A stretch of DNA of 64,000 nt from Phycisphaerae bacterium (GTDB lineage Bacteria > Planctomycetota > Phycisphaerae > UBA1845): NCBI GenBank assembly GCA_963666835.2, contig CAXXGO010000001.1, positions 1,504,001 to 1,568,000 on the forward strand. Reading direction: 5' to 3'. Positions 2,057 to 50,734 of this stretch are shown here, in pieces; position 1 is the stretch's first letter; each line of letters begins with the position of its first letter. A program made the translations under genes and the position numbers. The notes below the pieces were generated by a model, which ran no database searches, was not told the origin of the DNA, and was given only the letters and a program-made list of their open reading frames with translations.

Positions 2057-2058
2057 TC

Positions 2059-2493: not shown

Positions 2494-2594
2494 TTGAGCA
2501 TCCGCCGCACAAGCGGCTCCCAGGCCGCCTGAAACGAGGCGCTACGTGATGGCCGGACGAAATCATCCGGGCAGACGTCTGCCTGACGGACTGA

Positions 2595-2640
2595 CCGTGT
2601 CCCGCCCGGAACAGATAAGCTGTTCTGTTGCGGGACACGG
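2595..2640 (+). terminator. Strong hairpin after tadE (terminator or processing stem)
   Basis: CCGTGTCCCGC...GCGGGACACGG 11-bp stem plus inner GAACAG/CTGTTC; only a weak U-tract. Confidence 0.4.
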
Positions 2641-2844
2641 CAGTTTGCATCCCCAGGGCCTACTCCCGAGGCCAATAATTTTTCGATGTCGTAGGTCCGA
2701 TGACGCCCGAATCCTTCCGATAAGCGCCCAAGTGGAACCGTGGGTGGCCGGGCAGGTACACCGGTGTGCAGAACCCGCAAAGGGGAAGTCATACGCCGCA
2801 GGGCCTGCCGTAGTGAAGACCCGAGATAACGAACAGGACTCACT

Positions 2845-3966
2845 ATGAACACGAAGGCAATCATTCCGTTGGTCCTCGGTCTCTGTGTCGGTCTCGTAGC
2901 CGTCAAGTACCTGGTGGATACGCTGAAGAAGGCGCGCGGCTCGACTGCCGCCCCAACGTCCACTTTCGTCCGAACGACGCAGGACATCGATAGCTTCCAG
3001 AAGATCACTCCGGAGTTACTCGAGCTCGTGGAGACGACGGACGTTTCTCTGATTCCGTCCAATGAGCGCATCACGAGCATCGACGAGGTCAAAGACCGCG
3101 TGGCCGCAAAGGACATTCCGCAGAACTCCTTGATCGTCCTTTCAATGCTCGCCCCAGAGGGCACCGAGGCCGGCATGAAGGGGCAGATCCCCCCGGGCTA
3201 CCGTGCCGTGTCGGTCAAGATCGACGAGGTAACCGGTGTAGCGTATCAGCTTAAGCCCGGCGATTGGGTGGACGTCATCGTCGTGATGAGCGTGGATACC
3301 GGCCGAAGGAAAAAGGAAACCGTTGCGGAGGTTATCCTCCAGCACGTCGAGGTACTGGCAATCGGGCAGACTACCACGGGACCGACCGGCGAGACCGGTA
3401 AGAGCAAGGCCAAGCCGGCCAAGTCCGCAACCCTGCTTGTACCGGAGGATGACGCGCCCAAGCTGCACCTGGCGGCTACCCGCGGACGAGTGACCTTGGC
3501 GATGCGTGGAGCCGACTCCCTTACCACCGAGGTACCGGCCGTGGCCCGCGAGAGCGAGGATTTCTACAACCCGACCGCCGCGAGTTCGGAAGAAGAGACC
3601 GCCTCTACCGATTCGGGTACTTCATCCGGTCCGGCCGGCTTCCTGGGTACCTTTGTCGCGTTTGCGGCGACTCCGCCCCAGACTGTGCCGGAGCCCGAAC
3701 CCGAGCCCGAGCCACCTCATGGGCTGACAATCTACCGCGGCTTGCCCAACGTCGGCGAGCCCAAGGTAGAACAGGTCGTTTTCGCCAACGGCGCCTCGCG
3801 CACCGTCGTCGGAGTGTCCAGCGGTCCGGTCGCTCGGGCCGTCGCCTCAAAAGACAACAGAGCGGAACGCAAACCGCGTCCGCAAAGGCGTTCCGATCAG
3901 ACGGAACCCGTAAAACCAGACGAGCCGGATACGGACTTTGACTACCAGCCCGAGGAGGTTGAATAA
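2845..3966 (+). CDS. cpaB: Flp pilus assembly protein CpaB (SAF + RcpC domains, low-complexity C-tail)
   Basis: GYRAVSVKIDEVTGVAYQLKPGDWVDVIV...ILQHVEVLAIGQ...ATLLV...LAMR. Confidence 0.93.
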   Translation: MNTKAIIPLVLGLCVGLVAVKYLVDTLKKARGSTAAPTSTFVRTTQDIDSFQKITPELLELVETTDVSLIPSNERITSIDEVKDRVAAKDIPQNSLIVLSMLAPEGTEAGMKGQIPPGYRAVSVKIDEVTGVAYQLKPGDWVDVIVVMSVDTGRRKKETVAEVILQHVEVLAIGQTTTGPTGETGKSKAKPAKSATLLVPEDDAPKLHLAATRGRVTLAMRGADSLTTEVPAVARESEDFYNPTAASSEEETASTDSGTSSGPAGFLGTFVAFAATPPQTVPEPEPEPEPPHGLTIYRGLPNVGEPKVEQVVFANGASRTVVGVSSGPVARAVASKDNRAERKPRPQRRSDQTEPVKPDEPDTDFDYQPEEVE

Positions 3967-8833: not shown

Positions 8834-10669
8834 ATGACAGGTCATTTCCTGCGAAAGGCAAACAAGAAACAGAAACGAGCGGTGGTGGCCGTACAGGTCG
8901 CAGTGTTCTCAGTAGTGTTGGTCGGCATGGCCGCGTTGACCATCGATGTGGGTGCCATGTACAATGCCAAGGCCGATTTGCAGCGGACGGCCGATGCGGC
9001 GGCACTGGCCGCAGCCGCACAACTCTCGGAATACACCGACGGCCCTCCGATAGACTCAGCAACAGAGGTGGCGCTCCAGTACGTCCAGAATAATCCCGTG
9101 CTGGGCCAGACCGTAACGCTCAACGTGGAAACGGACATTGTGTTCGGCCGGGCAGACTTCATCGAAGGAGAGTACACGTTTACTCCCGACTCGGTGATGC
9201 CGGACGCCGTGCGGGTTCGCGTGCGGAAGACTATCGACTCGCCAAACGACTCGCTTTCGTTGTACTTCGGGAAGGTCTTTGGCATAACAAACACTGAGCT
9301 GTGGGCCGAATCGGTAGCGGTTATGATGCCTCGCGATATCGCAGTTGTCGCGGACCTTTCCGGATCACACAACGACGACAGTGAACTTCGGCAATACAAG
9401 TCGACCGAGGTCAACGTCCACGAGGTCTGGGGCGCATTCCCCGGCGGTGTGGGCGACATAGATTCCTCCTGGGGCCCGGAGGAAGACCTTCCGGCGGATT
9501 GGATTGAGGAGGACGGCAGTATCCCCCAGGCAGCTGGACCGGCTTGGGGGTATATGCGAGAACTGGGGTATGGTACTTTGGACTGGGAACCGGGCGGGCT
9601 TCACGATCCCGACTATGATCCCACGGCGGACGACGGGCTGATCCGACTTCCGTACAATCAAGACTGGTCGGATGCCGAGTTGGAGGCTCACCTCAGCGAT
9701 CAAGGCTATAGCGCAAACGAGATAGACGCTATCATGAGCGATAGCTACGACTCCGACGGCGCATACCAATACCGAGTTGCCGTAGCTCTCGGTCTCGCGT
9801 TCTGGAACAGCGGTAAGTCCGGCGGACTTTGGGAGTCGCGTGGCGTCGATCCTTCAGACACCGGTAACGGCAACAGTTGGATCGGCAGCTCGGAGCTGGA
9901 CTGGATTGAACCCGTCTTCAGTAAGTCCATAAGCACCTCGAAGAGCATCTGGTTGGACTACATCAACAACTACGTGAAATCGAGCTCCACGACGATGTAC
10001 CAAGCCAACCACTCGTTTCGTTATCGCTTCGGGGTCAAGACGTTCACGAACTACCTCATGGACCGACGTCCAAGCCACAGCCAGACTCCGGAGTTAGCGG
10101 AGTCCCATACCCAGCCCATGCAAGCGGTCAAAGACGCTGTCGAGTTCATGGTCGGGTTCGTGGACGAGCTGGACACCGACGACCAGCTCTCGTTGGAGAT
10201 TTACGGCCGCACTGCCCATCACGAGGTTGACCTGACCCAGAACTACGCCGAGGTCAGCAACCGCCTCAACGAGATGCAGGCCGGCCATTATGATACCTGG
10301 ACCAACGTCGGCGGGGGGCTGGAGCGGGCCATCGAGGAACTCGAAAGCGACCGGGCGCGGGCTCTGTCTCGCAAGATGATCATCCTGCTGACGGACGGAG
10401 TCGCCAACACCGATGAGCACGGCAATTGGGACGAGGACGGCGCAGTCGATTACGCCTTGGCCCAGGCCCAAATAGCCGCTGACAATGGCGTGAGAATTTT
10501 TGCAGTGAGTGTTGGAGTGACCGCCGACCAGAGCCTGATGCAGCAGATTGCCGAGCTTGGCCACGGAGAACACTTCCACGCGGAAGGTTCAATTGCCCAG
10601 TACAGCGCCGAATTGGCCGATATCTTCCAGAGACTAGGTAGCCGTCGACCGGTCGAGTTGATCCGGTAG
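8834..10669 (+). CDS. TadG-like pilus-associated protein with split VWA domain (paralog 2)
   Basis: Same architecture as 5670..7547 (DLQRTADAAALAAA, DLSGS, TNVGGGL, IILLTDG); ATG at 8834 with GGAG RBS. Confidence 0.88.
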   Translation: MTGHFLRKANKKQKRAVVAVQVAVFSVVLVGMAALTIDVGAMYNAKADLQRTADAAALAAAAQLSEYTDGPPIDSATEVALQYVQNNPVLGQTVTLNVETDIVFGRADFIEGEYTFTPDSVMPDAVRVRVRKTIDSPNDSLSLYFGKVFGITNTELWAESVAVMMPRDIAVVADLSGSHNDDSELRQYKSTEVNVHEVWGAFPGGVGDIDSSWGPEEDLPADWIEEDGSIPQAAGPAWGYMRELGYGTLDWEPGGLHDPDYDPTADDGLIRLPYNQDWSDAELEAHLSDQGYSANEIDAIMSDSYDSDGAYQYRVAVALGLAFWNSGKSGGLWESRGVDPSDTGNGNSWIGSSELDWIEPVFSKSISTSKSIWLDYINNYVKSSSTTMYQANHSFRYRFGVKTFTNYLMDRRPSHSQTPELAESHTQPMQAVKDAVEFMVGFVDELDTDDQLSLEIYGRTAHHEVDLTQNYAEVSNRLNEMQAGHYDTWTNVGGGLERAIEELESDRARALSRKMIILLTDGVANTDEHGNWDEDGAVDYALAQAQIAADNGVRIFAVSVGVTADQSLMQQIAELGHGEHFHAEGSIAQYSAELADIFQRLGSRRPVELIR

Positions 10670-35915: not shown

Positions 35916-38615
35916 TTACGGGCAAGACCCCGGGTCCGAGAACGGGTATGGCTCGCCTCTGAAGGCGTCAACCAGAAGTTGGATGTCCGTGAAGTTGATC
36001 ACGAGATCGACCTCCTCCCCGGCCACGTCCGCCCACGTCCAGGGCGGGGCACCCTCGAGACCGGAGAACGCTTGGAGCGCCGCCTGAATGTCGTTCAGGT
36101 TGACGATCCCGTCCGGGCCGGTCCAGTAGACGTAGACCTTCTCGCCGACGATGTCGCCCCACTCTTTCGGTAGCGGTGCGGAAAGCGTAGCCACCTCGAC
36201 GGGAGACGAGAAGATCGTGCCGTTGCCGGTTGCGCGAATCTCGTAGTGTGCCGCCGGTACGATCTCGCAGTCGCCGAGATAAACCTCCGATTCGGTCCAG
36301 ATTCGATACGTCGGAGTGTCGACAATCCGGGAGACGAATTCACCCGAGCACTCTCCCGGGCAGCCGCGCTCCACCGGTTCACCGAGCCAGCCGACGATGC
36401 CGGGCGTCCCGGGTCCTTCGGTCATTTCAACCTGAAAAGCAACGTTGACGTCCTGGGTCCCGGTACCGATGGCTACGTAGCGGTTGGTGCCGGTGAACTC
36501 AGTCAGCTCCGGGGCGCTTACCTCGCATTCATCCGGTAAGCCGTTGCCGTTCACGTCAAGCGAGGTTCCGCCGGCAATGTCGTCGGCGTCCAGAATGCCG
36601 TTCCCGTTGCAGTCGCCAACGCGCAACAACGCGATCTGGGTTCCCCATTTGTTCACGCTGTGCCCGTATTCCTGGATGGTCCAGAAGTCGCTTTCGTTAT
36701 CGGGGTCCAGCGAGGTGTAGCTGTAGTCTCCCCAGCGGTTGCGTCCGTAGCTGTCGATGTTGTTCTGCGGACCGGTTCCGGCGCGATATTGCACCGGAGC
36801 GGCCATTTCGCCGAGCGAGTCACTTGCCCGGCGTCCGGTGAAATAAGCGCCGGCATATTGCGACGAGCTGGATCCGGTGAAGCCCATGGCCACGTCGCCG
36901 TGGGTGTTGACCATGATGGAGGGGAAGAAGTAGTGCAAAGAGCCGCTGCTGACCGTTCCGCTTTGAATCAGGGTTACTGAGACGGGGTCGATCTCGTACC
37001 AGCGACACGCGGCCCGCCCGCCGTAGTTGATGGTATGGCAGGTCCAGAGTGAACCGTCGCGATACACCGCGTTCATCAATCGGTCGCCGACGGTGTCCAG
37101 GTTTGTGCTGCTACCCAACGCCGGGGCGTCCGGGGGAGAACCAAACGATGGGACACTGACGTTTCCCACGTCCGTAATCGTCGCGGGATTCGTCGAGGCG
37201 TCTATTCTCCGGATGCGCAGCGAGGTCGAAGACCGGGTGGACACCACGTACTCTCCGGCGGGAGTGCCGAAGGTCTGGGCCGGTTGCAGTGCCCCGTCGT
37301 GCGGGAGGTTTCTAAAAGCCGTAACCGTGCCAAGGTACGGCGATGCACCGATCAGGGGATCCTTGTCGATCGCGAAGAGCGTCATTAGGTAGCTGCCCCC
37401 GACCATGTAGGCCCCGACGTAGATTCCGTGGGCGTCGACCCCGAGGGTGGGGTAGTCCGGCCACTTGCCCGTTTCGGCAATGAACGAGCTTTTGTACCAG
37501 CTTCCCGTGGGGTCGTCCGTTAACGAGACTGCTATGTAGATCCGCTCGGTGAAGTCCGAGACGATTACGATCCACCGGCCACTGTGCTGGTCGAATAAAA
37601 CTCGCGGATCGCCGTTAGAGCCCGGAAGGAACGAACCCAAGTACATGCTGGTAATCAACGCGCCAGTGGTCTTGTTGTAAACGGCGAACACGCGGTTGAT
37701 TGTCTCGACGAAGTGGTTCGGGCCGATCGCCCCATGCGTGTCGGGCGGATAACTGGAAGAGCCGCTGTCCCCGCGCTTTACCCCTTCGAAATCCCTTACG
37801 AGGGTGGGTGCGGTGCCTCCGTCCTGCAACGCCATCGCCACCCCACCGGTAGTTGCCTGGGGTCTCTCCGGTTCAGTGCCCGGCGGTAACTTAGGGGCGT
37901 GAATCGCCTGCTCCGGGCCAAAGTCGCCGGTCCCCGTCTCCCAGACCAAACCGTAGTACCGACTCCCGGTGAGCGACGTGCTATAGGTCACGTCCTCGAA
38001 GTCGAGCACGGTGGGCCCTTGCTCCGCTTCAGCGATCCGAGTGAAGGTCAAGTCGTCCAGGGCGTACCAGCCGGCGCCGTCTACGACCGGTTCGGCCTCG
38101 ATCACGATCCGGTTCACACCGCAGAGGTCCATTTCAAACCAAGCGGGCTCCTCTCCTATATTCCTGAACCACTCGGTTTGCTGGGTAGCCTCCCCGTTAA
38201 GGTAACCGGTTACGCGAACGCCTGTCGTCCACGATCCCCGTCCTCCTTGGCCGGCGAAGTACGCTCCGTGGACGTCGACGAGTTCCGGGAACCGAATTCC
38301 CATTTCGGTATCGCCCCATTTGTTCATGGCGTGATGTTCGCCAGATTTCGGCGAGGTGGTCGCCCGGCGGCCTGGAACGATCCAGCTTCCGGCGACGCCG
38401 TTGCGGGTGTGGCGGTCGAGCAGCCATTGTGCGGGGGCGGACGCCTCGCGGGCCAGGGCGTCGTCCAGGGTCTCCGTGACGCCGGTTCCGTACGTCGACT
38501 GGTCCACACGTTCGCCCGAGATTCTCTCCCCAGAGGCGACGGCGAGCGGAGTGGTCGTGCAGATCGCACCCGTAAGAACACCGATAAACGTCAGTATTGC
38601 CTTCTGTTGTTGCAT
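35916..38615 (-). CDS. Large secreted protein: PPD...RWGDYS-type domain, Ca-binding repeats and a dockerin-like C-terminus
   Basis: Signal peptide from ATG 38615; PPDTHGAIGPNHFVETIN, GDPRVLFD, RWGDYS; DCNGNGILD/DVNGNGLPDECE; paired DGIVNLNDI / DLVINFTDI loops. Confidence 0.85.
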   Translation of the reverse strand: MQQQKAILTFIGVLTGAICTTTPLAVASGERISGERVDQSTYGTGVTETLDDALAREASAPAQWLLDRHTRNGVAGSWIVPGRRATTSPKSGEHHAMNKWGDTEMGIRFPELVDVHGAYFAGQGGRGSWTTGVRVTGYLNGEATQQTEWFRNIGEEPAWFEMDLCGVNRIVIEAEPVVDGAGWYALDDLTFTRIAEAEQGPTVLDFEDVTYSTSLTGSRYYGLVWETGTGDFGPEQAIHAPKLPPGTEPERPQATTGGVAMALQDGGTAPTLVRDFEGVKRGDSGSSSYPPDTHGAIGPNHFVETINRVFAVYNKTTGALITSMYLGSFLPGSNGDPRVLFDQHSGRWIVIVSDFTERIYIAVSLTDDPTGSWYKSSFIAETGKWPDYPTLGVDAHGIYVGAYMVGGSYLMTLFAIDKDPLIGASPYLGTVTAFRNLPHDGALQPAQTFGTPAGEYVVSTRSSTSLRIRRIDASTNPATITDVGNVSVPSFGSPPDAPALGSSTNLDTVGDRLMNAVYRDGSLWTCHTINYGGRAACRWYEIDPVSVTLIQSGTVSSGSLHYFFPSIMVNTHGDVAMGFTGSSSSQYAGAYFTGRRASDSLGEMAAPVQYRAGTGPQNNIDSYGRNRWGDYSYTSLDPDNESDFWTIQEYGHSVNKWGTQIALLRVGDCNGNGILDADDIAGGTSLDVNGNGLPDECEVSAPELTEFTGTNRYVAIGTGTQDVNVAFQVEMTEGPGTPGIVGWLGEPVERGCPGECSGEFVSRIVDTPTYRIWTESEVYLGDCEIVPAAHYEIRATGNGTIFSSPVEVATLSAPLPKEWGDIVGEKVYVYWTGPDGIVNLNDIQAALQAFSGLEGAPPWTWADVAGEEVDLVINFTDIQLLVDAFRGEPYPFSDPGSCP

Positions 38616-39090
38616 GACATCCCCTGCTGCGTTTTTGCCTTTTTGAACCGGTCGTCCCTCGCTCCGTTGAGGATTTCGGCCAGACAGACCCATCTAACAA
38701 CATACATGATCGGTTATGGGATTGCCACGGAATTATCCGGCGTGGAAGGTCGCCTTCGCGGGTTTTCCTTAGCGGATCTCGACTGAATTGTAATTGTTAG
38801 TGGTATCTTCGGTATCGCCGGTTTTCTGCGGATGAAGTGTCCATTCTGTTGTGTAACTGTGTCGCGAGGCATGATCGGGCGTTACTTGGTCCTCGGGTTT
38901 GCCAGGCAGCAGGTTATCGGGTAGAATTGGTATTGTGCATCGGGCCAAGTCGGATGGGGTATCAAAGAGGCGCGGAGTACGAAGAGACGGGAGAATCACC
39001 CGGCACGATGTCGGGCGGCTCTTTTATGGGTTGGTCACAGACCAACGGGGCTTAAGTGGCATATCCTGAACGGATTAAAAGGAGTGAATC

Positions 39091-39672
39091 ATGCGTAAGG
39101 TGATGGTTTTGTTAGTGGCAGGGATGGTGGTTGCCTGCGCGGCGCCGAGCTTGGCGTTGGCGGATGGGGCAAAAACGGCGCCGGTACCGGCAACGGATGC
39201 GACGATGAGCCTGAAGCCGTCGCAAGCGACCGTGAGTCCGGGCGACGTTGTAACAGTGGAGGTTCTGGTCAACAACATCAAGGGGCTGGCTTGCTATCAG
39301 GCGGCGGTCAAGGCCGTTGGCGGCGAGAAGGGTAAGCTGAGCGTGGAGGACATTATAATCGACACGGCTCGGGCGGACTACGTTTTCGGTAAGGCCCAGA
39401 AGCTTCCTGCCACGGACAAGGTGGGATTGCGTGCGGGTTGCACGTTGTGGGAGGGGTCAGTCGACGTATCGAAACCAGCCTACTTGGCGACGTTTAAGCT
39501 CCGTGCGTCTGAGGACGCCAAGGGGGTGTTCGAGATCGCCCTCAAGGCTGATCCGGAAGTCACGTTCCTGACGGATCGGGATGTCAAGAAGATTGCATTC
39601 AACAAGGTCGCGGCGAAGGTAACTGTTGAGCAGAAGTCGCCGCTTCGCAGCACGGAACGGAAAGCCGGATAG
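39091..39672 (+). CDS. Secreted single cohesin-like domain protein
   Basis: RBS AAAAGGAG; signal peptide; SLKPSQATVSPGDVVTVEVLVNNIKGLACYQ...YLATFKLRA...GVFEIAL beta-sandwich pattern. Confidence 0.7.
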   Translation: MRKVMVLLVAGMVVACAAPSLALADGAKTAPVPATDATMSLKPSQATVSPGDVVTVEVLVNNIKGLACYQAAVKAVGGEKGKLSVEDIIIDTARADYVFGKAQKLPATDKVGLRAGCTLWEGSVDVSKPAYLATFKLRASEDAKGVFEIALKADPEVTFLTDRDVKKIAFNKVAAKVTVEQKSPLRSTERKAG

Positions 39673-39849: not shown

Positions 39850-40827
39850 TTATCCAACCTCGCGTTTCTGAAAAGCCGCGATAGCGATACACACAAGGCC
39901 GATCGTCAGAAGGGCCGCGTAGCCGGTGACCAGCCCCACGTACTTCAAGGGCACGACGGTTTCTACCGTGCCGGCCATCAGGCCATCGACGATCCAGAAT
40001 GGTCCCATATTTGGGATAACCCCATAGGCGATGTCGGCCACGAGGGATGTCTCGGCGTGCTGCCCGAAGGCGTAGTCGGAAATTATTCCGATGCCCAGCA
40101 CGCCGGTGCACGTCACGAGGGTCATCAGTTGCCCGAACCGGGTGGAGGCGGCCAGGGCGACGGTTGCGGTTATCAGAGTCATCAGCCAGACCAGGTACAC
40201 CGCGATGAAGACCTGCCCTCCGACGAAGTTGCTTGCAAAGGGAATGACATCCCAGTGCTCGTCGAACTTGGCGACGATTAGCACGGCGAGGGTAAGCAGC
40301 GGTATCAGGAATGCTATCACCGTCGTCGGGAAGTCCTTGTCATAGAAGTAGTTACAGAAAGCGGCGCAGGCCATGGACAAGACGACACTGCCGATTCCCA
40401 AGGCGAGGACCGGGGCATCCCACGGGTCCGAGGAGTTCTGGAGGACTCCGTGGCGCTGGGCGAGGATGAACACGAGGCTGCACAGGTAGAACGCGACGGA
40501 CAGGGCGGCGATCAGCCCGACGAACTTGCCCAGAATGAAGACCGGTCGGCTGATTGGCTTGGAGATCACCGTCAGTACGGTCTTGTTTTCGATTTCACGG
40601 CTCAACGTCCCGGCGGCACTGAAGGCCGACAAGAACAAACCACTCAACATCAGCGTAGAGAGACCCAGGTCCAAGAGGAGCTTGTCGTCGTCGTCGAGCG
40701 TGAAAGCCGCTAGAGAGACGTTCAGCACCAGAAGGACGGCCGTTGTCAGGAGGATCACGCCGTAGATCGGCTGGCGGAGGGTTTCCACGAACGTGTTTGA
40801 GGCTAACGAGAAGAAGCGCTGGAACAT
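39850..40827 (-). CDS. ABC-2 type permease (PilI/XapB-like)
   Basis: LASNTFVETLRQP, REIENKTVLTVISKPISRPVFILGKFVG, C-terminal FQKREVG. Confidence 0.88.
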   Translation of the reverse strand: MFQRFFSLASNTFVETLRQPIYGVILLTTAVLLVLNVSLAAFTLDDDDKLLLDLGLSTLMLSGLFLSAFSAAGTLSREIENKTVLTVISKPISRPVFILGKFVGLIAALSVAFYLCSLVFILAQRHGVLQNSSDPWDAPVLALGIGSVVLSMACAAFCNYFYDKDFPTTVIAFLIPLLTLAVLIVAKFDEHWDVIPFASNFVGGQVFIAVYLVWLMTLITATVALAASTRFGQLMTLVTCTGVLGIGIISDYAFGQHAETSLVADIAYGVIPNMGPFWIVDGLMAGTVETVVPLKYVGLVTGYAALLTIGLVCIAIAAFQKREVG

Positions 40828-41045
40828 GAGGTCGGGTTGCTCCGTCGAAGCTGTTTCGCTGACACCTTGGTCCGAGTTTGTTGCCGAGCACGCCCCTTGG
40901 GCTGCATGTTGGCACTCGTTGCCAGTTATAGTAAGCTGCCCGCGCGTTTCGACAAGCCGCACGTTGTGGCAGCCAAGTTCACCCTCATGGTACGCCCCGG
41001 TGGGTAGACCGGTTCGAGCCCCCGGGCAGTGAGCGGAATCAACGA

Positions 41046-43145
41046 ATGACCGAAACAGTGACATCTACCGATCGACGCGCCCAACACGTGGCGTTGATGG
41101 GCTTCATCATGCAGTTGGCCGCGTTCGGGACCCTGCTGGGGCTATCTGTCTGGGCGTCATCCGACGCGATAGCTGCGGTGGCGAGGTTCATGGTGATCGG
41201 GGTGCCCGTCTGGCTGGTCCTGTTCCTGGTATTCAAACAGGCTCAGCGAGTTGAGGCGGAGCGGCTGGAGACGGCCGAGCTGAAGCGGGCTCAGCAGTCC
41301 GGCGAGACCGCTTCGATATTTGATGTGGATGACGAGGACCTCCTTCTGGAGCAGAACCGCTTGATGTGGATGGCTCGCTGGCTGTTGCCGGCGGTCACGG
41401 TGGTTCTCTCGGCCTACTTGCTGCTGGGGCACTACCTGTGGTGGGGGTGGCCTCTTGATGTGGAGCAGGTGTTCGACGAAGGAGTAGTCCGGCGCACGCA
41501 GCAGCCCACGCTGATGATGTGGTTCGTTATCGGCGTCGGTTTCTTGTGTTTTCTTTATGCACGATATGCGATCACCCTGGCCCGCATGCGAGAGTGGCAC
41601 CTTCTGCGGGCCGGGGCGACGTGCATGGCGGGTAACGCGTTGGCGTGCCTGGGATTGTCAATAGCGCTGATGGTCGGCGTCACGGCCTCGTGGGCGGAGC
41701 CTCTGGTGGCGTTGTTGATGCGAATCGGCCTGGTCGTATTCGGTCTGGAATTCGCGATCAACTTCATCATGGACTTCTATCGTCCGCGCGTGCCGGACCA
41801 GATTCGGCGACCCTCGTTTGATAGTCGCCTCCTGGGGCTGGTAAGTGAGCCGGATGGGATTGCCAAGTCGATCGCGGATGCGGTTAATTATCAGTTTGGA
41901 TTCGAGGTCAGCTCGACGTGGTTCTATCAGTTGCTCCAACGCTGGCTGTTCCCGGTCGTGGTCGCCACCGCCGTGACTGTTCTGCTGCTCACCAGCGTGG
42001 TGATCGTGGATGCCGACGAGCAGGCGGTGGTTGAGCGATTCGGCAAGGAACCGACGGAGGTTTGGGAGCCGGGTCTGCACTTCAAACTTCCGTACCCGAT
42101 CGACATCGTCTACCGAGTGCCTGCCCGGCGCGTTAATGAGTTGATGGTCGGGGAGGCCGTCGAGGAGGATGACGAAAGTCTGACCAAGCCGGTCGTGTGG
42201 ACGGAAGTCCACGATTACATTCCGGAGCTGATGCTCGTTGTGGCTTCACCTAAGGACGAGGACGCGTCGGACGACTCGGAACTCGAAGCCGAGGAGGGAG
42301 AGGCCGGAGAGAGCGTCGCGGTCAGTCTTTTGCTGGCGTCGGTGCCTATCGAATACCGGATCAAAGATGTGCGGGACTACTTCTACACCTACGACGATCC
42401 CGTGAAGGTGTTGGAAGCGATAGCCTATCAGTACATGTCCGACTTCGCGGCGAGCGTTACTACCGAGGAGCTGATGGGTCCCGGACGCGAGGCGTTTAAT
42501 CGGAGGCTCAAGGAGCATATCCAGCAGCGTCTGGATGACCTCGACATCGGCATTGAAGTGGCCTTCACCGGTTTCCAGGGCGTTCACCCTCCCGCCAAGG
42601 GCGGAGTAGCGTCGGCCTACCTCGGCGTGGTGGCGGCTGAGGTGGGGATGCGAAGCCTGATTAATGCGGCCGAGCGCGAGGAGCTCAAGATCCTGACCGC
42701 TGTTGCCGGGACCAAGGCTCGGGCGGACGAGCTGGATGCTGCCATTCGCGAAAAAGACGCCCTGCGATCGCAATCCAAGCCGGACCCGCAAGCTTTGGCG
42801 GCGGCCGAACAGCGGGTCGAAGACCTTCTGATGGGTAACGTAGCCAAGGGGATTCCTCCGTTGAGCGGTGAAGCGGCGGCTCAGGTTGCCGCGGCGCGGG
42901 CCGAGGCGAGCAAGCTGATCAGCGAGGCGTCCGCGAAGGTCCGGGTGTTCGCGACGGAGGTGGCCGCGTACGAAGCGTCGCCGATGTTGTACAAGCAGCG
43001 TAAGCAAATCAGCGTCTATAAAGACCTTGATGATGTTCGGAAGTACTTGGTTATCGGCGATCCGTCGAACGTGATCGTCATTTTCGACACGAGTGAAGAA
43101 GGCGGGATTGATCGAGTGCTCCGCAAGGCGGGTGAGGACCAGTAA
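41046..43145 (+). CDS. SPFH/Band-7 protein (HflK-like) with a large N-terminal multi-TM domain
   Basis: Several TM segments, then IVDADEQAVVERFG...PGLHFKLPYPID, IEYRIKD, GVHPP, YEASP. Confidence 0.88.
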   Translation: MTETVTSTDRRAQHVALMGFIMQLAAFGTLLGLSVWASSDAIAAVARFMVIGVPVWLVLFLVFKQAQRVEAERLETAELKRAQQSGETASIFDVDDEDLLLEQNRLMWMARWLLPAVTVVLSAYLLLGHYLWWGWPLDVEQVFDEGVVRRTQQPTLMMWFVIGVGFLCFLYARYAITLARMREWHLLRAGATCMAGNALACLGLSIALMVGVTASWAEPLVALLMRIGLVVFGLEFAINFIMDFYRPRVPDQIRRPSFDSRLLGLVSEPDGIAKSIADAVNYQFGFEVSSTWFYQLLQRWLFPVVVATAVTVLLLTSVVIVDADEQAVVERFGKEPTEVWEPGLHFKLPYPIDIVYRVPARRVNELMVGEAVEEDDESLTKPVVWTEVHDYIPELMLVVASPKDEDASDDSELEAEEGEAGESVAVSLLLASVPIEYRIKDVRDYFYTYDDPVKVLEAIAYQYMSDFAASVTTEELMGPGREAFNRRLKEHIQQRLDDLDIGIEVAFTGFQGVHPPAKGGVASAYLGVVAAEVGMRSLINAAEREELKILTAVAGTKARADELDAAIREKDALRSQSKPDPQALAAAEQRVEDLLMGNVAKGIPPLSGEAAAQVAAARAEASKLISEASAKVRVFATEVAAYEASPMLYKQRKQISVYKDLDDVRKYLVIGDPSNVIVIFDTSEEGGIDRVLRKAGEDQ

Positions 43146-43189
43146 CACGCGGGATACAGGGGCCGCGCTACCAAAGGAGTCGTTAGGCA

Positions 43190-44107
43190 ATGAAGAATTT
43201 GGGCACCATTCTGGCTGCCGTGTTTCTCGCCGTCGTGCTGCTGCTGTACATGTGCACGTTCCAGGTGCGATTCACCGAGGTGGCGATCAAGAAGACCTGG
43301 GGCAAACCAGCGGAGCAGGCTATCGTTGATCCGGGTCTCAAGTTCAAGTGGCCGTTCCCGATCCAAAGCGTGGTGCTCTATGACAAGCGTATCCGGATCA
43401 TGGAGGATCGGACGGAGGAGACGCGTACGATTGACGCGAAGAACCTCTTTCTGACCACGTTCACCCTTTGGCGGATCGTGGATCCGGCGAAATTCCACAC
43501 GAACTTCCCGGCCGGGGTTGAGGAGGGTGAGAAGAAGCTCCGCACCACGATAATCACGCACAAACTGGCGGTTACCGGAAGGCACACGTTTGACGAGTTT
43601 GTGTCGACCGATCGTGCCGATCGCAAGATCGGCCAGATCGAACAGGAGATGTGGGACGCGATCAGTCGTGATGCCATCGAAGAGTATGGGGTCGAGATTA
43701 TCGGTTTTGGGATCAAGAAACTCGGGCTGCCCGAATCGGTGACGATGGCCATCTTCGAGAGTATGAAGTCGAACGAGGAGAAGAAGGCGGCGCGGTACTC
43801 GGCGGAAGGTGAGGCCCGGGCGGCGGAGACTCTGGCGAGGGCTCGCGCGGCCGAAGAACGCATCATGGCGACGGCGCGGCAGAAGGTTGCCGAGATCCAG
43901 GCGCGTGCCGAACGGGTGGTCAGCGAGTACTACAAGGAGTTTGACCGCTATCCCGAGTTGCGTATTTTCCTCGACGAGTTGCGTGCGGTAGCTGAGGCCC
44001 TGCGTGAGCGAACGACGTTAGTCATCGACACTAAACAGGCGCCGTGGAACGTCTTCGATGATGCGGCACGCGAAGAGAAAGCTCACCAGCGAGTGGAGCA
44101 GGACTAG
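43190..44107 (+). CDS. SPFH/Band-7 protein, HflC-like
   Basis: CTFQVRFTEVAIKKTWGK...PGLKFKWPFPIQSV..YDKRI, TIDAKN, WRIVDP, YGVEI..FGIKKLGLP..AIFESM. Confidence 0.88.
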   Translation: MKNLGTILAAVFLAVVLLLYMCTFQVRFTEVAIKKTWGKPAEQAIVDPGLKFKWPFPIQSVVLYDKRIRIMEDRTEETRTIDAKNLFLTTFTLWRIVDPAKFHTNFPAGVEEGEKKLRTTIITHKLAVTGRHTFDEFVSTDRADRKIGQIEQEMWDAISRDAIEEYGVEIIGFGIKKLGLPESVTMAIFESMKSNEEKKAARYSAEGEARAAETLARARAAEERIMATARQKVAEIQARAERVVSEYYKEFDRYPELRIFLDELRAVAEALRERTTLVIDTKQAPWNVFDDAAREEKAHQRVEQD

Positions 44108-44178
44108 GGAATTGCTGCAATTGCGAGGGCGGCGCCGCAGGCGACTGCGGGGTACTTAAGTAGATGGATTAGAACACC

Positions 44179-45477
44179 ATGCATATGCACGCGCACCACG
44201 ATCACCACTCTCATCGGGATCTCGATACCAAGGAGGAACCGCTGGATGCGGCTAATCAGTCCTTAGCGGACGCACTGCGGTCCAGCTTCGGGATCCTCAA
44301 GGTGATTATGATGGTTCTGGTGGTCCTGTACCTGGCCTCCAACGTGCGGTGTGTCGACACGCACGAGCAGGCTCTGCATTTACGGTTGGGGGCTCTGCTG
44401 CCCGGGGTTTATCAGCCGGGGCTGGTGTGGGCGTTCCCCTTCCCGATTGATGAGATTGTTCCTTTGCCGGCTAAGTCCAGCAACGAACTGCTGAACGACA
44501 GTCATACGTTTTACCACGGCCGGAGTGACGTGGGGAAGTCGCTAGCCGTGCTCAGCGGTGAGGCGTCCGGAGGAATCGACCCGGTTGGTCCGGGCGGCGC
44601 TCTCCTTACGGCGGATGCCGGACTCGTTCACGCCCGTTGGAAGGTCACCTACAAGATCGACGAGGTCGGTCGGTTTGTCACGAACTTCCTCGGCAACAAG
44701 GTAGAGGCCGCCGACGGATTGCTCGCGGTTGTCGTCGAGAACGCCGGGATTCACGTGGCCAGTGAGATGACCGCCGAAGAGATGATTCGGACCAGGGTGC
44801 ATGACGTACAGGATGAGATGAAGCGCCGTGTTAACGAGTGGCTTCGGAAGTTGGACAGCGGAGTCGTGGTAACCACGATCGAGATGTATGAACCGACGCC
44901 TCCCCTGCAGATCCGGGGAGTCTTCGACGCAACGCAGCGGGCGGAGAACATGAAAAAAAGAGCGATCGACCGCGCTCAACAGGAAAAGACCCAGATTCTG
45001 AGCCGGACTGCCGGCGGTGGGTACCAGGAGTTTGCGGAGCTGCTTGACAAGATTGAGGTTGAGGAGGCGGCCGGCCGGCCGATCAAGGCGCTTGAAGCCG
45101 AACTCGAGCAGTTGCTTGTGGACAAGGCGGAAGGAGAAGCCGGGCGGCTGATTCGAGAGGCCAGCGCCTATCACTCCGTGGTAGTCGGGCAAATGCAGAG
45201 CGACGTCGAACTCTATCGCACGCTGCTGCCGGAGTACGAGCGTAATCCAAAACTGCTGATCGCGCGGCTGTGGGAGCAAACCCGCCGGGCGATCTACGAT
45301 AACCCGGGGGTGACCAAGATATACCGTCCTTGCGAATCCGAGTTCCGACTCAAGATCCCGTTGGATCCGGAGCAGGAGCGGGTAGAAGAAGAGCGCCGAC
45401 TCCAACAGCAGGAGTATGATGTAAGCAAACTCAAAACGCCCAAACAAGTGCCTCTTGGTCCGGGCTACGACGGCTAG
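44179..45477 (+). CDS. SPFH/Band-7 protein (HflK-like) with His-rich N-terminus
   Basis: MHMHAHHDHHSH; DAANQSLADALRSSF; PGLVWAFPFPIDEIV; LLTADAGLVH; PPLQIRGVF; EYERNP. Confidence 0.88.
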   Translation: MHMHAHHDHHSHRDLDTKEEPLDAANQSLADALRSSFGILKVIMMVLVVLYLASNVRCVDTHEQALHLRLGALLPGVYQPGLVWAFPFPIDEIVPLPAKSSNELLNDSHTFYHGRSDVGKSLAVLSGEASGGIDPVGPGGALLTADAGLVHARWKVTYKIDEVGRFVTNFLGNKVEAADGLLAVVVENAGIHVASEMTAEEMIRTRVHDVQDEMKRRVNEWLRKLDSGVVVTTIEMYEPTPPLQIRGVFDATQRAENMKKRAIDRAQQEKTQILSRTAGGGYQEFAELLDKIEVEEAAGRPIKALEAELEQLLVDKAEGEAGRLIREASAYHSVVVGQMQSDVELYRTLLPEYERNPKLLIARLWEQTRRAIYDNPGVTKIYRPCESEFRLKIPLDPEQERVEEERRLQQQEYDVSKLKTPKQVPLGPGYDG

Positions 45478-45539
45478 CCGGCAACGGCCCCGGGCGTCAG
45501 GTGACGGGCGGAGGCGGTTGCCTAACGTGAGTTTTCTCG

Positions 45540-46766
45540 ATGGTTAAACAGTCACTCCCTGTGGTGCAGACCGCGGGGCTCTGCAAGACATTCAAGGACT
45601 TCTGGCGGCGACCTCGGGTCGAGGCGGTCAAGGACCTGAACCTGGCTATCAAGCCAGGAGAAGTGTTCGGATTGCTGGGGCCCAACGGCTCGGGCAAGAC
45701 GACCACGATCAAGATGCTGCTCGGTCTGCTGTACCCGTCGCGCGGGCGGATCTCGCTGTTCGGCAAAGCGCCGACGGATGTCGTGGTCAAAGCGCGGATC
45801 GGGTTCTTGCCGGAAGAGTCCTACCTCTATCGGTTCCTGGTGGCCCACGAGACGCTTGACTACTTCGGACGTCTTTTCCGATTGCCCAAAGCTCTCCGGA
45901 ATGAGCGGGCTGATCGGCTTCTCGATATGGTGGGATTGAAGCACGAGGCCAAACGTCCCCTGGGCGAGTATAGCAAGGGGATGGCCCGGCGGATCGGGTT
46001 GGCCCAGGCGCTGATCAACGATCCGGAGTTTCTGATTCTCGATGAGCCGACGACGGGGCTGGATCCAATCGGAGCGCGGCAGATCAAGGATCTGATTCGC
46101 GAACTTGGGGATAAGGGTAAGACGATCCTGCTTTCAAGCCACGTGCTGGCGGATGTCGAGGACGTCTGTGATCGCGTGACCATTCTTTACGGCGGACAGC
46201 AACGTGCGGCCGGCGACATCGGGGAACTGCTGAGCAAACGCGACGTCACCCAGATTACGACTCCCGCCCTGTCCGAAGAGACGGTTGAGCAGGTCCGCGG
46301 ACTCATCCAGAAGTTGGAGAAGAAGGACATCCTCGACGTGACCCATCCGCACCAGCGTTTGGAGGAGTTCTTCCTGCGAATCGTCGAGGAGGCCCAGGCG
46401 GCCAATATCGTCACCTCCGGAGCCCGGGCGGGGGGGGCCTTGCCCGAGTTTCTCAAGGTGCCCACCGCAGAAACGACGGCGGACGTGGTCGAGACCCTGG
46501 TCGAGGCGGCGGACCGGCCGAGTGTGGCAGTGCCGGTGACCCCGGCCGCGTTGCCGGAGCCGGCGGTGGAACCGTCGCGTGAAGTGCTGGACGATCTGCT
46601 ATCTACCCCGTCCTTGCGGTCGGATGATACCGCAGAGGAGCCTGCGGCACCCAAGGCCGCTACGGAACCGCCGCGGGCCTCGCGGGCGAGACCGGCAGCC
46701 GACAGCGGAGTGATCGACTCTCTGATCCAGCGGGCCGAGGACGGCGAGAACGAGGGTTCGAAGTAA
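45540..46766 (+). CDS. ABC transporter ATP-binding protein (PilH/XapD-like) with low-complexity C-tail
   Basis: GPNGSGKTT, YSKGM signature, ILDEPTTGLDP, SSH. Confidence 0.95.
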   Translation: MVKQSLPVVQTAGLCKTFKDFWRRPRVEAVKDLNLAIKPGEVFGLLGPNGSGKTTTIKMLLGLLYPSRGRISLFGKAPTDVVVKARIGFLPEESYLYRFLVAHETLDYFGRLFRLPKALRNERADRLLDMVGLKHEAKRPLGEYSKGMARRIGLAQALINDPEFLILDEPTTGLDPIGARQIKDLIRELGDKGKTILLSSHVLADVEDVCDRVTILYGGQQRAAGDIGELLSKRDVTQITTPALSEETVEQVRGLIQKLEKKDILDVTHPHQRLEEFFLRIVEEAQAANIVTSGARAGGALPEFLKVPTAETTADVVETLVEAADRPSVAVPVTPAALPEPAVEPSREVLDDLLSTPSLRSDDTAEEPAAPKAATEPPRASRARPAADSGVIDSLIQRAEDGENEGSK

Positions 46767-48181
46767 TGCCAATCTGGGCCGTTGCCAGACAGATGATCGC
46801 CGAAGGCATCAGGATGAAGATTGCCTTGGTTTTTCTGGCGTTGATTGGCGCCGTGATTGTGGGACTGCCCTTCTCGGTTGAGGGAGACAGCACGCTCTCC
46901 GGTGCGGTCCAGAGTTTCATGGCCTACGGCTTCTCTGCGACGGCGGTCCTTTTGAGCATGTTGACGATCTTCATGTCGCGGTCGCTCTCGGACGAGTTGG
47001 TCAACCGTCAGATCTTCCTGGTTATGACGAAGCCGGTATCCCGCTGGCAGTTCGTGGTGGGCAAATGGCTGGGGATCACCTGCCTGAACGCGGTGTTTCT
47101 GGTGTCTGCGGGTCTGACCATCTACGGGATGATCCATTACATCAGAATCAGCCACGGATCAGGCGCAGGCGAGGCTGAGCGGAGTTCGGAAAGGAAGGCG
47201 TTGGCAGAAGAGGTATTGGTGGCGCGGCATGCCCTGCGCGTCGTGCTCCCGGATTTTTCGAAGACGGCGGAGAGGGAATTCGATCGCAATGTTGAGGAGG
47301 GAGCTTACGCGGGAATCCCTGATTTCAATGTCGAGGCGGAGAAGGCTAGGCTTAGGAAGAAGCACGAAGCTCGTTGGCGGGTTGTTCCCCCGTTGAGCAG
47401 TAGGGTCTTTCGGTTCGAGAACGTGCTTTGCGAGCGCTCCCGGGAGGTGTTCATTCATTTGCGGTACAAAGCCGACGTGGTGAACTACGCTCCGGACGAA
47501 GTACTTCGAGCCGCGTGGGTCTTTGGGGACCCCGCCAATGAGACCCCGGAGTACATCGTTCCGATCCGGCACCGAGTCGATCGGTTCCACTCGATTCGCT
47601 TTCCATCAGACGCTGTTGCGGCGGATCACACTCTTCGGGTCGAGTTCGTCAACCGGAATCCGTTCCAGGGCGAGCGCCAGTTCGGCAATGTTATGGACTT
47701 TCGCAAGTCGAACGAGGTGGAAGTTCTGTTCGATGTCGGGTCCTTCGAGGGAAACGCGGTCCGGCTTATGGTCCTGATGATGTGCAAGCTGATGTTCCTG
47801 GCCGCCGTGGCGGTGCTTATGACGACGGTGTTTTCGTTTCCGGTGGCCTCCCTGGGGTCCTTCACCGTGTATGTTATCGCGGGGGCGCGGTCCTTTCTGA
47901 TGGAAGCCGTGGACTTCATGGGGGTCGGTTCGGATTCGATGTTCTCGTCTTTCAGTGCTTTCGCCGGCCAGTTGATCGCACATGTCATCACGATGGCTCA
48001 GTGGGTGGTGCCGGACTTCGGATACTACGACGGGGTGGAGACTCTGGTCAACGGCCGCAACGTGGGGCTGGTGTGGGTGTTGCAGGGGGTCGGCGAGCTG
48101 GTACTTCTGAAGACGGTTATCGTGCTGGGGTTGGCCGTGCTCCTGTTCCACCGGCGGGAAGTGGCGGAAGTTTCGGTGTAG
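46766..48181 (+). CDS. ABC-2 type permease with large extracytoplasmic domain
   Basis: DELVNRQIFLVMTKPVSRWQFVVGKWLG, ~200-aa soluble insert, C-terminal FHRREVA; start overlaps the ATPase stop (TAATG). Confidence 0.85.
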   Translation: MPIWAVARQMIAEGIRMKIALVFLALIGAVIVGLPFSVEGDSTLSGAVQSFMAYGFSATAVLLSMLTIFMSRSLSDELVNRQIFLVMTKPVSRWQFVVGKWLGITCLNAVFLVSAGLTIYGMIHYIRISHGSGAGEAERSSERKALAEEVLVARHALRVVLPDFSKTAEREFDRNVEEGAYAGIPDFNVEAEKARLRKKHEARWRVVPPLSSRVFRFENVLCERSREVFIHLRYKADVVNYAPDEVLRAAWVFGDPANETPEYIVPIRHRVDRFHSIRFPSDAVAADHTLRVEFVNRNPFQGERQFGNVMDFRKSNEVEVLFDVGSFEGNAVRLMVLMMCKLMFLAAVAVLMTTVFSFPVASLGSFTVYVIAGARSFLMEAVDFMGVGSDSMFSSFSAFAGQLIAHVITMAQWVVPDFGYYDGVETLVNGRNVGLVWVLQGVGELVLLKTVIVLGLAVLLFHRREVAEVSV

Positions 48182-48214
48182 ACGAGTCGAAGGCGTTCTT
48201 GAGGGTTTGAGCTG

Positions 48215-50197
48215 ATGTCGGAAACCAGGCCAGGCGTTCTTCCCGATCATCTGCGCGCCCGGCAGACCGCCGAGCGCCGCGAGTTCGGGGTGCAGGTTGT
48301 TGCCATACTTATGGCAGTAGTCTGCTTCTCCGCCGCGGCGTTGTTCACCGACGACATGAACGAGATTCGCAAGGAACGCCAGTTGGTGATCGACCCGGAG
48401 TCAACGAAAGGGCTTCCGTCGGATATCGCTTTGCTGGGGAAGCTCGGTACTTTTCGCGCTTTGGCGATTGACTGGGCTTCGATCCGAGCGGGGCGGCTTC
48501 GAGAGGAGGGCAAGACCTACGAGGCGTTGCAGCTTCATGAGACGATTTGCGTTTTGGCCCCGCGGTTCCCGAAGGTATGGGCCGACGCCGCGTGGAACAT
48601 GGCATACAACATCTCGGTCGAGCAATACTCCCCCGAGGGACGCTGGACCTGGGTGAAAAACGGCATCGAGCTTCTCCGCGACAGGGGTATCCAGTTCAAC
48701 ACGCGGGCACTGCTGCTGTACAAGGAGCTGGCTTACATCTACTGGCACAAAATCGGCGACATCATGGACGACGAGCATCTTAACTATCGTCGGGCCTTGG
48801 CAGTCGATATGGAACGCACCTTGGGCGCCCCCCCGGTCACCGTTGACGACGCGGGGTATATTGATTGGTTCCGCGAGATCGTCGAGGCGCCTCGGAACCT
48901 GCAGGGGTTCATCGAGGGTGACGTAGAAGTAAGGCATTTGGTCTCGGCACTCGAGGCGGTCGATCTTGCCCCGGACAGTTCGCTGCTGGAGTTCGTGGCG
49001 CGGCACGATCGGCCGGAGCTGCGCGAATCCGATCTCATCGAGAATCGTGCCGCATTGGACGCCGACCGGGCGGCCGGGTTGGCGGTCGTTTTCGACGAAG
49101 ACTCCGCCGAAGCACTTAAGCGGCTGCTCGCCGCGGTCAGGTCGAAGGTCCTGCGCGAGAAGCACAAGTTCGATCTGGATATGATGCTCCGCCTGATGGT
49201 CGAGGAGTATGGTCCACTCGACTGGCGCAACAACTTCGCCCATGCGTTGTACTGGGCGAGCCGCGGAGACGAGATGGCGAAGGACTATCACGGGCTCGAC
49301 CGCGCGGACCAGCTCAATACGGCGCGTCTGGTGTTCTTCTCGCTGCAGAGTCTGATCGACCGCGGACGGATGGTCCTCTATCCGGATTTCGATGACCCGT
49401 TCATGTCGTATTTGGATCTTAGCCCGGACACCCGTTATATCCCGTATCTTCACGACGCGTACATGCGGCTGGGGAAGAGGCTGCACGAGGATCACGAAGA
49501 CTACGTGGAGGGTACGCCCGGTCCGAAGTTCATGAACGGGTTTGTCACGGCCATGCAGAACTGGATATTCCTGCTCTACTTCGAAGGCGGAGAGCGGAAC
49601 CTGAAGCTGGCCGAGAACTACTACGCCTGGCTGCGCGAGTACAATCCGCACCCCGACGGTACGACGCAATCGCGATACATGAAGACTCTGGACGAGTTCG
49701 TCATGGGCGATGTTCTGAGCCAGCTTCAAACGTACCGGGCGGCGGGGGCGATCATCCGTAATCTGGTTACAAGAGGTCTGAAGCAGTACTCTTTGGGGCA
49801 AAAGCGAAGCGCTGCCACCTCGTTGGCGCGGGCCCAGTTGTGTCACGACTACTGGATGCAGGATTCGGACGCCGACATTAACGACCGGATGAAACTGGAA
49901 CCGCTGGACCGCATCGTTCGGAACCAGATCATCGACTTCATGAAGGAGCCTACGTTCGAGCCTCTGTTCAAGGCGCGCTTGTGGCGGGAGCTGCCGTTGG
50001 AGTACCGGCAGGTGACTTACGATTCTCTGCGCCAGTACTTCGGCGAGCTATGCGAGAGCCGCTCCCCGGTCTGGTCGGTTTCCGCGGCGTTTCCCGAGCC
50101 TGCGGGAATGAACGCGGCGCGCCGTCGGATGCAGAAGACAGGAGGCCCTTCGGAACCCGGAGCGGACGTCGAACAAGGCGAGAAGCACAAGGACTAA
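48215..50197 (+). CDS. Membrane-anchored helical protein of unknown function (PilG/XapA-like N-terminal domain)
   Basis: One N-terminal TM; LGTFRALAIDWASIRA...ICVLAPRFPKVW...AWNMAYNIS...RWTWVKNGIELLRD motif. Confidence 0.75.
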   Translation: MSETRPGVLPDHLRARQTAERREFGVQVVAILMAVVCFSAAALFTDDMNEIRKERQLVIDPESTKGLPSDIALLGKLGTFRALAIDWASIRAGRLREEGKTYEALQLHETICVLAPRFPKVWADAAWNMAYNISVEQYSPEGRWTWVKNGIELLRDRGIQFNTRALLLYKELAYIYWHKIGDIMDDEHLNYRRALAVDMERTLGAPPVTVDDAGYIDWFREIVEAPRNLQGFIEGDVEVRHLVSALEAVDLAPDSSLLEFVARHDRPELRESDLIENRAALDADRAAGLAVVFDEDSAEALKRLLAAVRSKVLREKHKFDLDMMLRLMVEEYGPLDWRNNFAHALYWASRGDEMAKDYHGLDRADQLNTARLVFFSLQSLIDRGRMVLYPDFDDPFMSYLDLSPDTRYIPYLHDAYMRLGKRLHEDHEDYVEGTPGPKFMNGFVTAMQNWIFLLYFEGGERNLKLAENYYAWLREYNPHPDGTTQSRYMKTLDEFVMGDVLSQLQTYRAAGAIIRNLVTRGLKQYSLGQKRSAATSLARAQLCHDYWMQDSDADINDRMKLEPLDRIVRNQIIDFMKEPTFEPLFKARLWRELPLEYRQVTYDSLRQYFGELCESRSPVWSVSAAFPEPAGMNAARRRMQKTGGPSEPGADVEQGEKHKD

Positions 50198-50224: not shown

Positions 50225-50734
50225 TTAACGTCTCCGGATCGCGGTACGCAGCAAGGCGGTCAGTCTCTCGCAGACGAATTCCCGAAAGACCTTACCGTCC
50301 AGATTGCGCAAGCGCAGCATAGGGCCGCTGACCAGTTCGCCGGCAATGTCGGGGGCATAACGGGTCTCGTGAAACGCGATGGCCTCCGTCGTTACCGTGC
50401 CCAGCAGTTGGGCGCGATACTCCCCGAAGCCGAATTCCATCTTGATTTCCCGTCCGCCGGACAGGAAGTTGGACACATCCAATTCGAGAGACACTCCCGA
50501 CGCTGCGTACTTCTCCTTTATCTCCATGAAGATACCGACGAGTTCATTGATGGTCAGTGTCCGAAGAGCTTGAATTCGGTCGGGCTCGTCGGGAGACGAA
50601 GCGGCCTGGGCCTTCTTCTCTCTTTCCTTAATGACGGTGAGCAGGGAGTCCAACTCGCTCTCCGAGGTGTGCTCCTTTGGCGGCGGAGGCCGGTTCTTCT
50701 CGATCAGCTTCTGATAGTCGCTCAAGGCGCACAC
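50225..50734 (-). CDS. Hypothetical protein
   Basis: 169-aa ORF with protein-like composition and AGGGGA RBS; no domain recognised. Confidence 0.7.
   Translation of the reverse strand: MCALSDYQKLIEKNRPPPPKEHTSESELDSLLTVIKEREKKAQAASSPDEPDRIQALRTLTINELVGIFMEIKEKYAASGVSLELDVSNFLSGGREIKMEFGFGEYRAQLLGTVTTEAIAFHETRYAPDIAGELVSGPMLRLRNLDGKVFREFVCERLTALLRTAIRRR

Follow-up and report, generated by a model that had tools for sequence, protein, structure and literature searches.

An SPFH trio in a Phycisphaerae bacterium looks like part of a membrane platform for metal handling that carries an ABC transporter

Results

Organization of the locus

The locus described here occupies positions 39850–50197 of the window, a 64,000-nucleotide stretch of a Phycisphaerae bacterium of the phylum Planctomycetota (assembly GCA_963666835.2, contig CAXXGO010000001.1, positions 1,504,001 to 1,568,000). 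It encodes three SPFH proteins (S1, S2 and S3; together, the trio), an ATP-binding cassette (ABC) ATPase, two ABC-2-type permeases (A and B), and a membrane-anchored helical protein of 660 residues (X660). An original prediction, made from the sequence alone, had proposed these seven genes as a unit, and the open reading frames (ORFs) of the window and Pfam scans bear out all of them at the same coordinates, in the same order and on the same strands. The best reading is that the window holds seven of the eight genes of an old operon, found in Planctomycetota and in Lentisphaeria-like bacteria, with the order permease A, S1, S2, S3, P1B-ATPase, ABC ATPase, permease B and X660. The seven-gene set of the original prediction thus stands, but the prediction had overlooked both the eighth gene, the P1B-ATPase, and a CDF/ZnT fold in S1.

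Six genes lie on the plus strand. S1 (41046–43145; 699 amino acids) is a long HflK-like SPFH protein, S2 (43190–44107; 305 amino acids) is HflC-like with one transmembrane (TM) helix, and S3 (44179–45477; 432 amino acids) is HflK-like with a His-rich N-terminus. The ABC ATPase (45540–46766; 408 amino acids), permease B (46766–48181; 471 amino acids) and X660 (48215–50197) follow, the spacings between the six genes being 44, 71, 62, −1 and 33 bp. Permease A (39850–40827, minus strand; 325 amino acids) is divergent. Its listed ORF extends to 41064; the Met at 40827 is most likely the start, as many orthologues begin there, and this leaves a divergent gap of 218 bp, in agreement with the ∼220 bp first estimated. 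Pfam detects Band_7 in S1, S2 and S3, ABC_tran in the ATPase, and ABC2_membrane families in both permeases (PF12679 over cut-off in permease A).

A promoter and terminator scan of the locus gave signals at chance level, and none of four Fur/Zur patterns, which may not represent the planctomycete box, has an exact match in the 218-bp gap. ORFs that appear Fur-family-like by eye are present upstream of the operon in two loci (L279:2738–4031, also MerC-like, and L272:1055–1462).

Conservation of the unit

S2 was matched in 59 of the 61 genomes searched from the host's family and order, and 60 loci were fetched from this group, 46 of them orthologous and 14 paralogous to the window. All seven genes are found in the window's order in 40 of the 46 orthologous loci of the host's order (Phycisphaerae); four of the other six are cut by contig ends, and two lack one gene in the fetched stretch. 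The arrangement is therefore not due to chance, and the linkage of SPFH and ABC genes extends further, with ABC genes adjoining the trio in two phyla. One operon copy (L101) contains two insertions (9513–10598 and 1194–3110), which bring in genes for a C92 peptidase and a DUF4139/DUF4140 protein.

S1 is fused to a CDF-fold domain that lacks the metal site

The trio scores as HflK-like (S1), HflC-like (S2) and HflK-like (S3), in each case under the family cut-off (93.6, 98.3 and 112.9 bits, against 159.4, 134.4 and 159.4 for TIGR01933, TIGR01932 and TIGR01933). The best sequence and fold matches of the three proteins are E. coli HflK and HflC, with HflK the best PDB match of S1.

S1 consists of a membrane domain with a CDF fold (∼residues 4–251; 41055–41798, plus strand), an additional TM helix, an SPFH domain and a coiled coil. 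In the AlphaFold model (predicted local distance difference test score, pLDDT, 85.7), residues 4–251 match SLC30A10 (PDB 9kvx; Z 14.4, root-mean-square deviation 3.4, 178 residues aligned) and ZnT3 (PDB 9jj1; Z 14.1, root-mean-square deviation 4.5, 202 residues aligned), with Z values near the level that helical bundles attain by chance; ferritin-like bundles reach Z ∼10 against the same domain, below the CDF matches. Weak Cation_efflux matches are found in 11 of 48 S1 orthologues (best E 0.00044), and S1 aligns end to end with a CDF-HflK fusion, although the SPFH part supplies much of that score.

The HxxxD metal ligands of TM2 and TM5 were not found in S1, where the corresponding columns are mostly F/L/Y and G, and L/M, N/T/S/A and A. 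The first CDF ligand position is a His in 4 of the 48 orthologues, and the His/Asp pairs of the CDF-HflK fusion align with non-ligand residues. The residues that are conserved in S1 are E72, R105 and an invariant E235, together with motifs past the last CDF helix. S1 is thus a fusion of a CDF-fold domain to HflK in which the CDF metal site is missing, and its modeled membrane domain is probably a pseudo-transporter. It shares its fold with the CDF/SLC30 (ZnT) transporters but differs from them in the absence of the site-A His/Asp pairs and in the replacement of the cytoplasmic C-terminal domain by a TM helix and an SPFH domain.

With six CDF helices and one more before it, the SPFH domain of S1 is predicted to be periplasmic, together with those of S2 and S3, and the His-rich N-terminal tail of S3 (∼44179–44220), which precedes its TM helix, would be cytoplasmic. 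This assignment follows the HflK/C topology as generally known and as given in 10.1101/2024.08.09.604662. Many S3 orthologues, though not every one, share the His-rich character of this tail.

A P1B-ATPase is the steadiest partner of the trio

Outside the host's clade, a P1B-ATPase gene (TIGR01525 over cut-off) sits between S3 and the ABC ATPase. It is not in the same operon as the trio in this genome, where its orthologue lies on another contig (C6:2512550–2514562) and is the only P1B-ATPase found (the genome is 92% complete). Close orthologues of this pump (57–78% identity) are present in most genomes of the host's order.

In most lineages beyond the host's clade, the pump gene is within the locus or next to it. 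When 40 loci of the phylum were picked by X660, 14 held the trio, and the pump was present in 12 of these 14; it also occurs in 17 of 20 Planctomycetota loci chosen through S1. In a second phylum, that of a Victivallales record, S1 is detected in 74 of 201 genomes (E<1e-90), and among 20 loci from that phylum the pump is found in all 20, the ABC ATPase in 12 and permease A in 6, while ABC ATPase, permease B and X660 occur together in 8. Loci L131–L210 were not used as evidence of pump absence, since the flanking sequence of many of them stops at permease A. In one sample of 301 genomes of the host's phylum, S1 was detected in 50 (E<1e-100) and the pump in 55 (E≤1e-125), and all 50 fall among the 55; we chose these cut-offs ourselves, the one for S1 after seeing the scores, and the sampled genomes are kin, which weakens the argument from co-occurrence. 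Four of the five extra genomes have a divergent S1, and the fifth is an assembly of 1340 contigs. The steadiest partner of the trio is thus a P1B heavy-metal pump that is encoded elsewhere in this genome.

Two trees, both built rapidly in IQ-TREE, rooted at the midpoint and supported by SH-aLRT values, place the pump in relation to the trio. In the tree of S2, 87 rows form a clade (SH-aLRT 98) that comprises the window and loci where the pump lies beside permease A or out of view; two members (L249 and L267) have the pump and the trio with no ABC genes, and some few loci outside the clade are also without a pump in view. Inside the host's clade, the pump gene has relocated, either to a place next to permease A or out of the locus, yet it is retained in this genome. 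In the pump tree, the 23 stand-alone pumps of the trio type fall without exception into a single clade (SH-aLRT 98), to which neither the seven controls nor the three fused pumps belong. This clade includes the unlinked pump of this genome and the pumps of trio operons in Burkholderia and Rhizobium, and its members have a CPC-like TM6 and mostly a His in TM8. A complex prediction for the pump with residues 1–320 of S1 gave a score of 0.01.

The unlinked pump (L211:9551–11566 in its fetched locus) follows a gene for a very large protein with repeats that appear FG-GAP-like by eye, and this neighbor recurs in 19 of 30 orthologous pump loci.

Paralogous trios carry fused metal transporters

The first protein of the trio was scanned in 8 of the 14 paralogous loci. 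Four are fusions of an SO_0444/ArsP-family protein to HflK, one is CDF::HflK and three are P1B::HflK (the fused-HflK trio loci are L071–L083, L089 and L090). Paralogous trios thus fuse HflK to metal transporters of the P1B, CDF or SO_0444 type, and none of the fusions found joins HflK to an ABC part. One paralogous trio (L073) lies near a gene for the zinc chaperone ZigA.

Relation to FtsH

The only Peptidase_M41 match in the genome (C1:1955424–1955981) is ∼400 kb from the locus (∼C1:1543850–1554197), so the unit has no ftsH, as had been noted originally. A canonical hflKC-ftsH locus elsewhere, also considered then, exists in part: a separate hflK/hflC pair passes both TIGR cut-offs, but it is not adjacent to ftsH. 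Distance from ftsH consequently proves little about whether the trio acts on FtsH. E. coli HflK/HflC-FtsH (PDB 7vhp, 7wi3 and 9cz2) shares with the trio the SPFH domain, the single anchor helix and the coiled coil; it has two kinds of SPFH subunit, whereas here there are three, one of them fused to a CDF-fold domain and none reaching its family cut-off.

The genome contains another pair of long SPFH genes (C1:1281074–1283229), as well as two Band_7 matches with identical scores (C1:526692–527207 and C1:589829–590344), which may represent a duplication or an assembly repeat.

The ABC arm and X660

The ABC ATPase contains the Walker A, signature, Walker B and H-loop motifs, and its best match among bacterial PDB chains is NosF (E 4e-50). 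For permease B, which carries a hydrophilic insert of ∼200 amino acids, NosY is the only significant PDB sequence match (E 1.9e-9); permease A reaches only E 0.18 against NosY. The two permeases are paralogues (HHalign 99.8%), which fits the heterodimer proposed earlier, and the proposed absence of a substrate-binding protein also holds for this set of ATPase and ABC-2 permeases.

X660 has no Pfam or NCBIfam match. Its model (pLDDT 85.3) is an all-helical, TPR-like anchored solenoid with generic TPR matches only (best Z 11.0) and nothing in Foldseek at E≤0.001. Searches for homologues and in the atlas yielded no family name; the proteins they retrieved, largely from Planctomycetota, are unnamed or named after TPR repeats. 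The N-terminal 200 residues are the widely shared part. Among the 40 loci picked by X660, 21 hold the ATPase, permease B and an X660 relative without the trio.

The trio-less module is often followed by a membrane pyrophosphatase, another ion pump (L111:2572–5004, confirmed by NCBIfam; similar ORFs by eye in L113, L116, L118 and L126). In three loci, a second ABC ATPase and a permease that appears ZnuB-like by eye adjoin the module (L243:4210–5798, L244:4430–6011 and L108:18006–19471).

Flanking genes

A gene for a 169-amino-acid protein without an assigned family (50225–50734, minus strand) is convergent with X660 and kept in many loci of the host's family; it was set aside as a member of the unit, since it adjoins the unit within that family only. 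On the other side, a weakly cohesin-like protein of 193 amino acids (39091–39672, plus strand), with several paralogues in the genome, was likewise set aside, being beside the unit in 1 of 60 loci. Further out lies a secreted-looking protein of 925 amino acids with no Pfam match (35916–38693, minus strand).

Discussion

Comparison with known systems

The layout of an ATPase, one or more ABC-2 permeases and an anchored TPR-like protein is that of Myxococcus PilGHI and Geobacter XapA–D. In our genome, 0 of 11 matches of one pilin N-terminal pattern lie within 150 kb of the locus, although a single pattern can miss pilins. The closest solved relatives of the ATPase and permease B are NosF and NosY of the NosDFY complex, in which NosD is a β-helix protein and NosFY moves NosD for copper delivery. 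As in NosDFY (PDB 7o0y and related entries), where permease B corresponds to NosY and the ATPase to NosF, there is no solute-binding protein and there is an extracytoplasmic partner; the present unit differs in having two different permeases and in that X660 is a helical solenoid. A Pfam scan found no nosZ, nosL or other nos gene among 15 ORFs in and around the locus.

The closest known system is P. aeruginosa PA2439–PA2434, which encodes HflK-family, HflC and HflC-family proteins, PA2436 and HmtA. The likeness is a row of three SPFH genes with a P1B-ATPase gene after them, at a distance from ftsH; the difference is that no ABC ATPase, permeases or X660 are described there, while the pump of the present unit is unlinked. 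The row of a long HflK, HflC and a second HflK-family gene is common to the hmtA type of locus and to ours. Annotated operons of Burkholderia and Rhizobium have a long HflK, HflC, SPFH and P-type ATPase genes, and their long HflK matches the S1 profile into the membrane region.

PA2439, PA2438 and PA2437 (HflK, HflC and HflC-family) are up 5.6- to 14.4-fold together with hmtA in a znuA mutant (PMC4542158), the proteins of the PA2439 locus rise under zinc depletion (PMC11761036), and Zur binds the PA2439 promoter (PMC8531726). HmtA is described as a Cu/Zn importer (PMC8456098, PMC11923076). Deletion of a three-SPFH operon in strain PA14, which we infer to be the same locus, had mild effects, and the accessible text mentions no pump or metal test (PMC13086221). 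As far as the available parts of these papers go, they assign the SPFH genes no role with the pump. No description of the ABC-extended seven- or eight-gene unit was found among the literature matches listed, from a search that took in few subscription journals; the available parts of PMC6060248, PMC7997004, PMC9239133 and PMC12892813 contain nothing on it.

A putative metal-handling platform

The unit looks like a membrane platform for metal handling to which an ABC transporter is attached, and not simply a caged ABC transporter, because the steadiest partner of the trio is a heavy-metal pump. Our tentatively preferred reading, to which we give a little less than even confidence, is a predicted SPFH ring that surrounds or adjoins the P1B pump, in which the inactive CDF domain would serve as a dock and the ABC-X660 arm would act in the same metal pathway. 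S1, S2 and S3 would build their own ring of the HflK/C type on the periplasmic face. The main client of this ring would be the P1B pump, which the inactive CDF domain of S1 may help to dock and which the predicted cytoplasmic His tail of S3 could buffer or sense. When metal is scarce, the likeliest cargo of the pump would be Zn or Cu, in line with reports on HmtA. By analogy with NosDFY, the NosFY-like ABC transporter and X660 may form a second arm of the same pathway, in which ATP would most likely be spent on moving X660, passing metal or a metal-loaded client to or from the platform, and not on solute export.

Several observations weigh against this reading. It was the ABC genes that remained in cis in the host's clade while the pump departed; in one genome (L247/G240), the pump, X660 and permease A share a contig that does not carry the trio, and another locus (L246) shows S1 alone. 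X660 relatives occur in 215 of the 301 sampled genomes, and full-length permease A in 58 (E<1e-70), 15 of which have no S1 orthologue; the ABC arm can thus function on its own. X660 shows no conserved metal site, the His of its D-x-H motif being kept in 87 of 121 trio-linked sequences. The fused transporters of the paralogous trios are annotated as efflux families. As regards P. aeruginosa, HmtA and PA2439 are likened to our proteins by their described gene layout and not by direct sequence comparison, and hmtA mRNA was not repressed by zinc in one study (PMC8531726).

Some of these observations would be expected if the operon held two modules, with the trio and the pump forming one device and the ABC ATPase, permeases and X660 an unrelated envelope machine, resembling Gld, PilGHI or Xap, that became a neighbor once and was kept nearby by inheritance or shared regulation. 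Besides the 15 genomes with full-length permease A, and with it the complete ABC set, but no S1 orthologue, and the 21 of 40 X660-picked loci with a trio-less module, the trio and pump occur without ABC genes in L249, L256–L259, L261, L262, L267, L280 and L282, and the ATPase is retained with permease B gone in L243, L244, L265 and L268–L270. We nevertheless consider a mere neighborhood rather unlikely: the ABC genes adjoin the trio in two phyla and many families although the order of other genes changed several times, and in loci of the host's clade they are still there after the pump has gone (40 of 46 loci).

The original prediction went the other way, making a heterodimeric ABC transporter, enclosed by a hetero-oligomeric SPFH ring, the client of the scaffold. 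The tight spacing between S3 and the ATPase (62 bp) and the conservation of seven genes with no pump in cis agree with the ABC transporter as main client in this lineage, as does permease A adjoining S1 in L245, L264, L266 and L281, where the other ABC genes are missing. SPFH rings can also hold transport proteins, as the title of PDB 9zd2, stomatin with aquaporin 1, indicates. The survey, however, did not favor this client: the most constant partner of the trio is a P1B-ATPase that is not in the window and that tracks S1 far more closely than the ABC genes do, the trio and pump occur without ABC genes, and the ATPase-permease-X660 module occurs without the trio. Every fusion found joins HflK to a metal transporter, and S1 itself has a CDF fold. 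As the account of this lineage, an SPFH cage around the ABC transporter seems unlikely. A combined form, in which all eight proteins make one machine with a three-subunit SPFH ring, docked by the inactivated CDF domain, enclosing both the P1B pump and a NosFY-like ABC motor with its helical arm, is less likely again; if true, it would be a periplasm-facing chamber that captures metal or loads it onto client proteins, an SPFH cage for metal handling and not for proteolysis.

That the trio is instead a second HflK/C set regulating the single FtsH in trans, for example by shielding or feeding metal transporters in zinc shortage, is very improbable even though its closest solved relatives are E. 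coli HflK/HflC and PMC11761036 takes the P. aeruginosa trio as FtsH interactors, for a separate pair already passes the hflK/hflC cut-offs that the trio does not, and both the fusions to transporters and the existence of a dedicated clade of pumps suggest that the client is a transporter.

Implications

The unit is real, deeply conserved and uncharacterized, and belongs to the SPFH-trio and P1B-ATPase kind, here extended by a NosFY-like ABC transporter. It bears on what bacterial SPFH assemblies do for clients besides FtsH, and the family offers such clients built in: fusions of HflK to three unrelated kinds of metal transporter, a dedicated clade of pumps, and a transporter fold that has outlived its metal site. 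For the SPFH genes next to that of HmtA, an unusual importer of the P1B type, it also suggests a role that experiments can address: the ring may shape the direction of the pump or its substrate supply. The retention of the ABC-extended form in two phyla suggests an undescribed envelope function.

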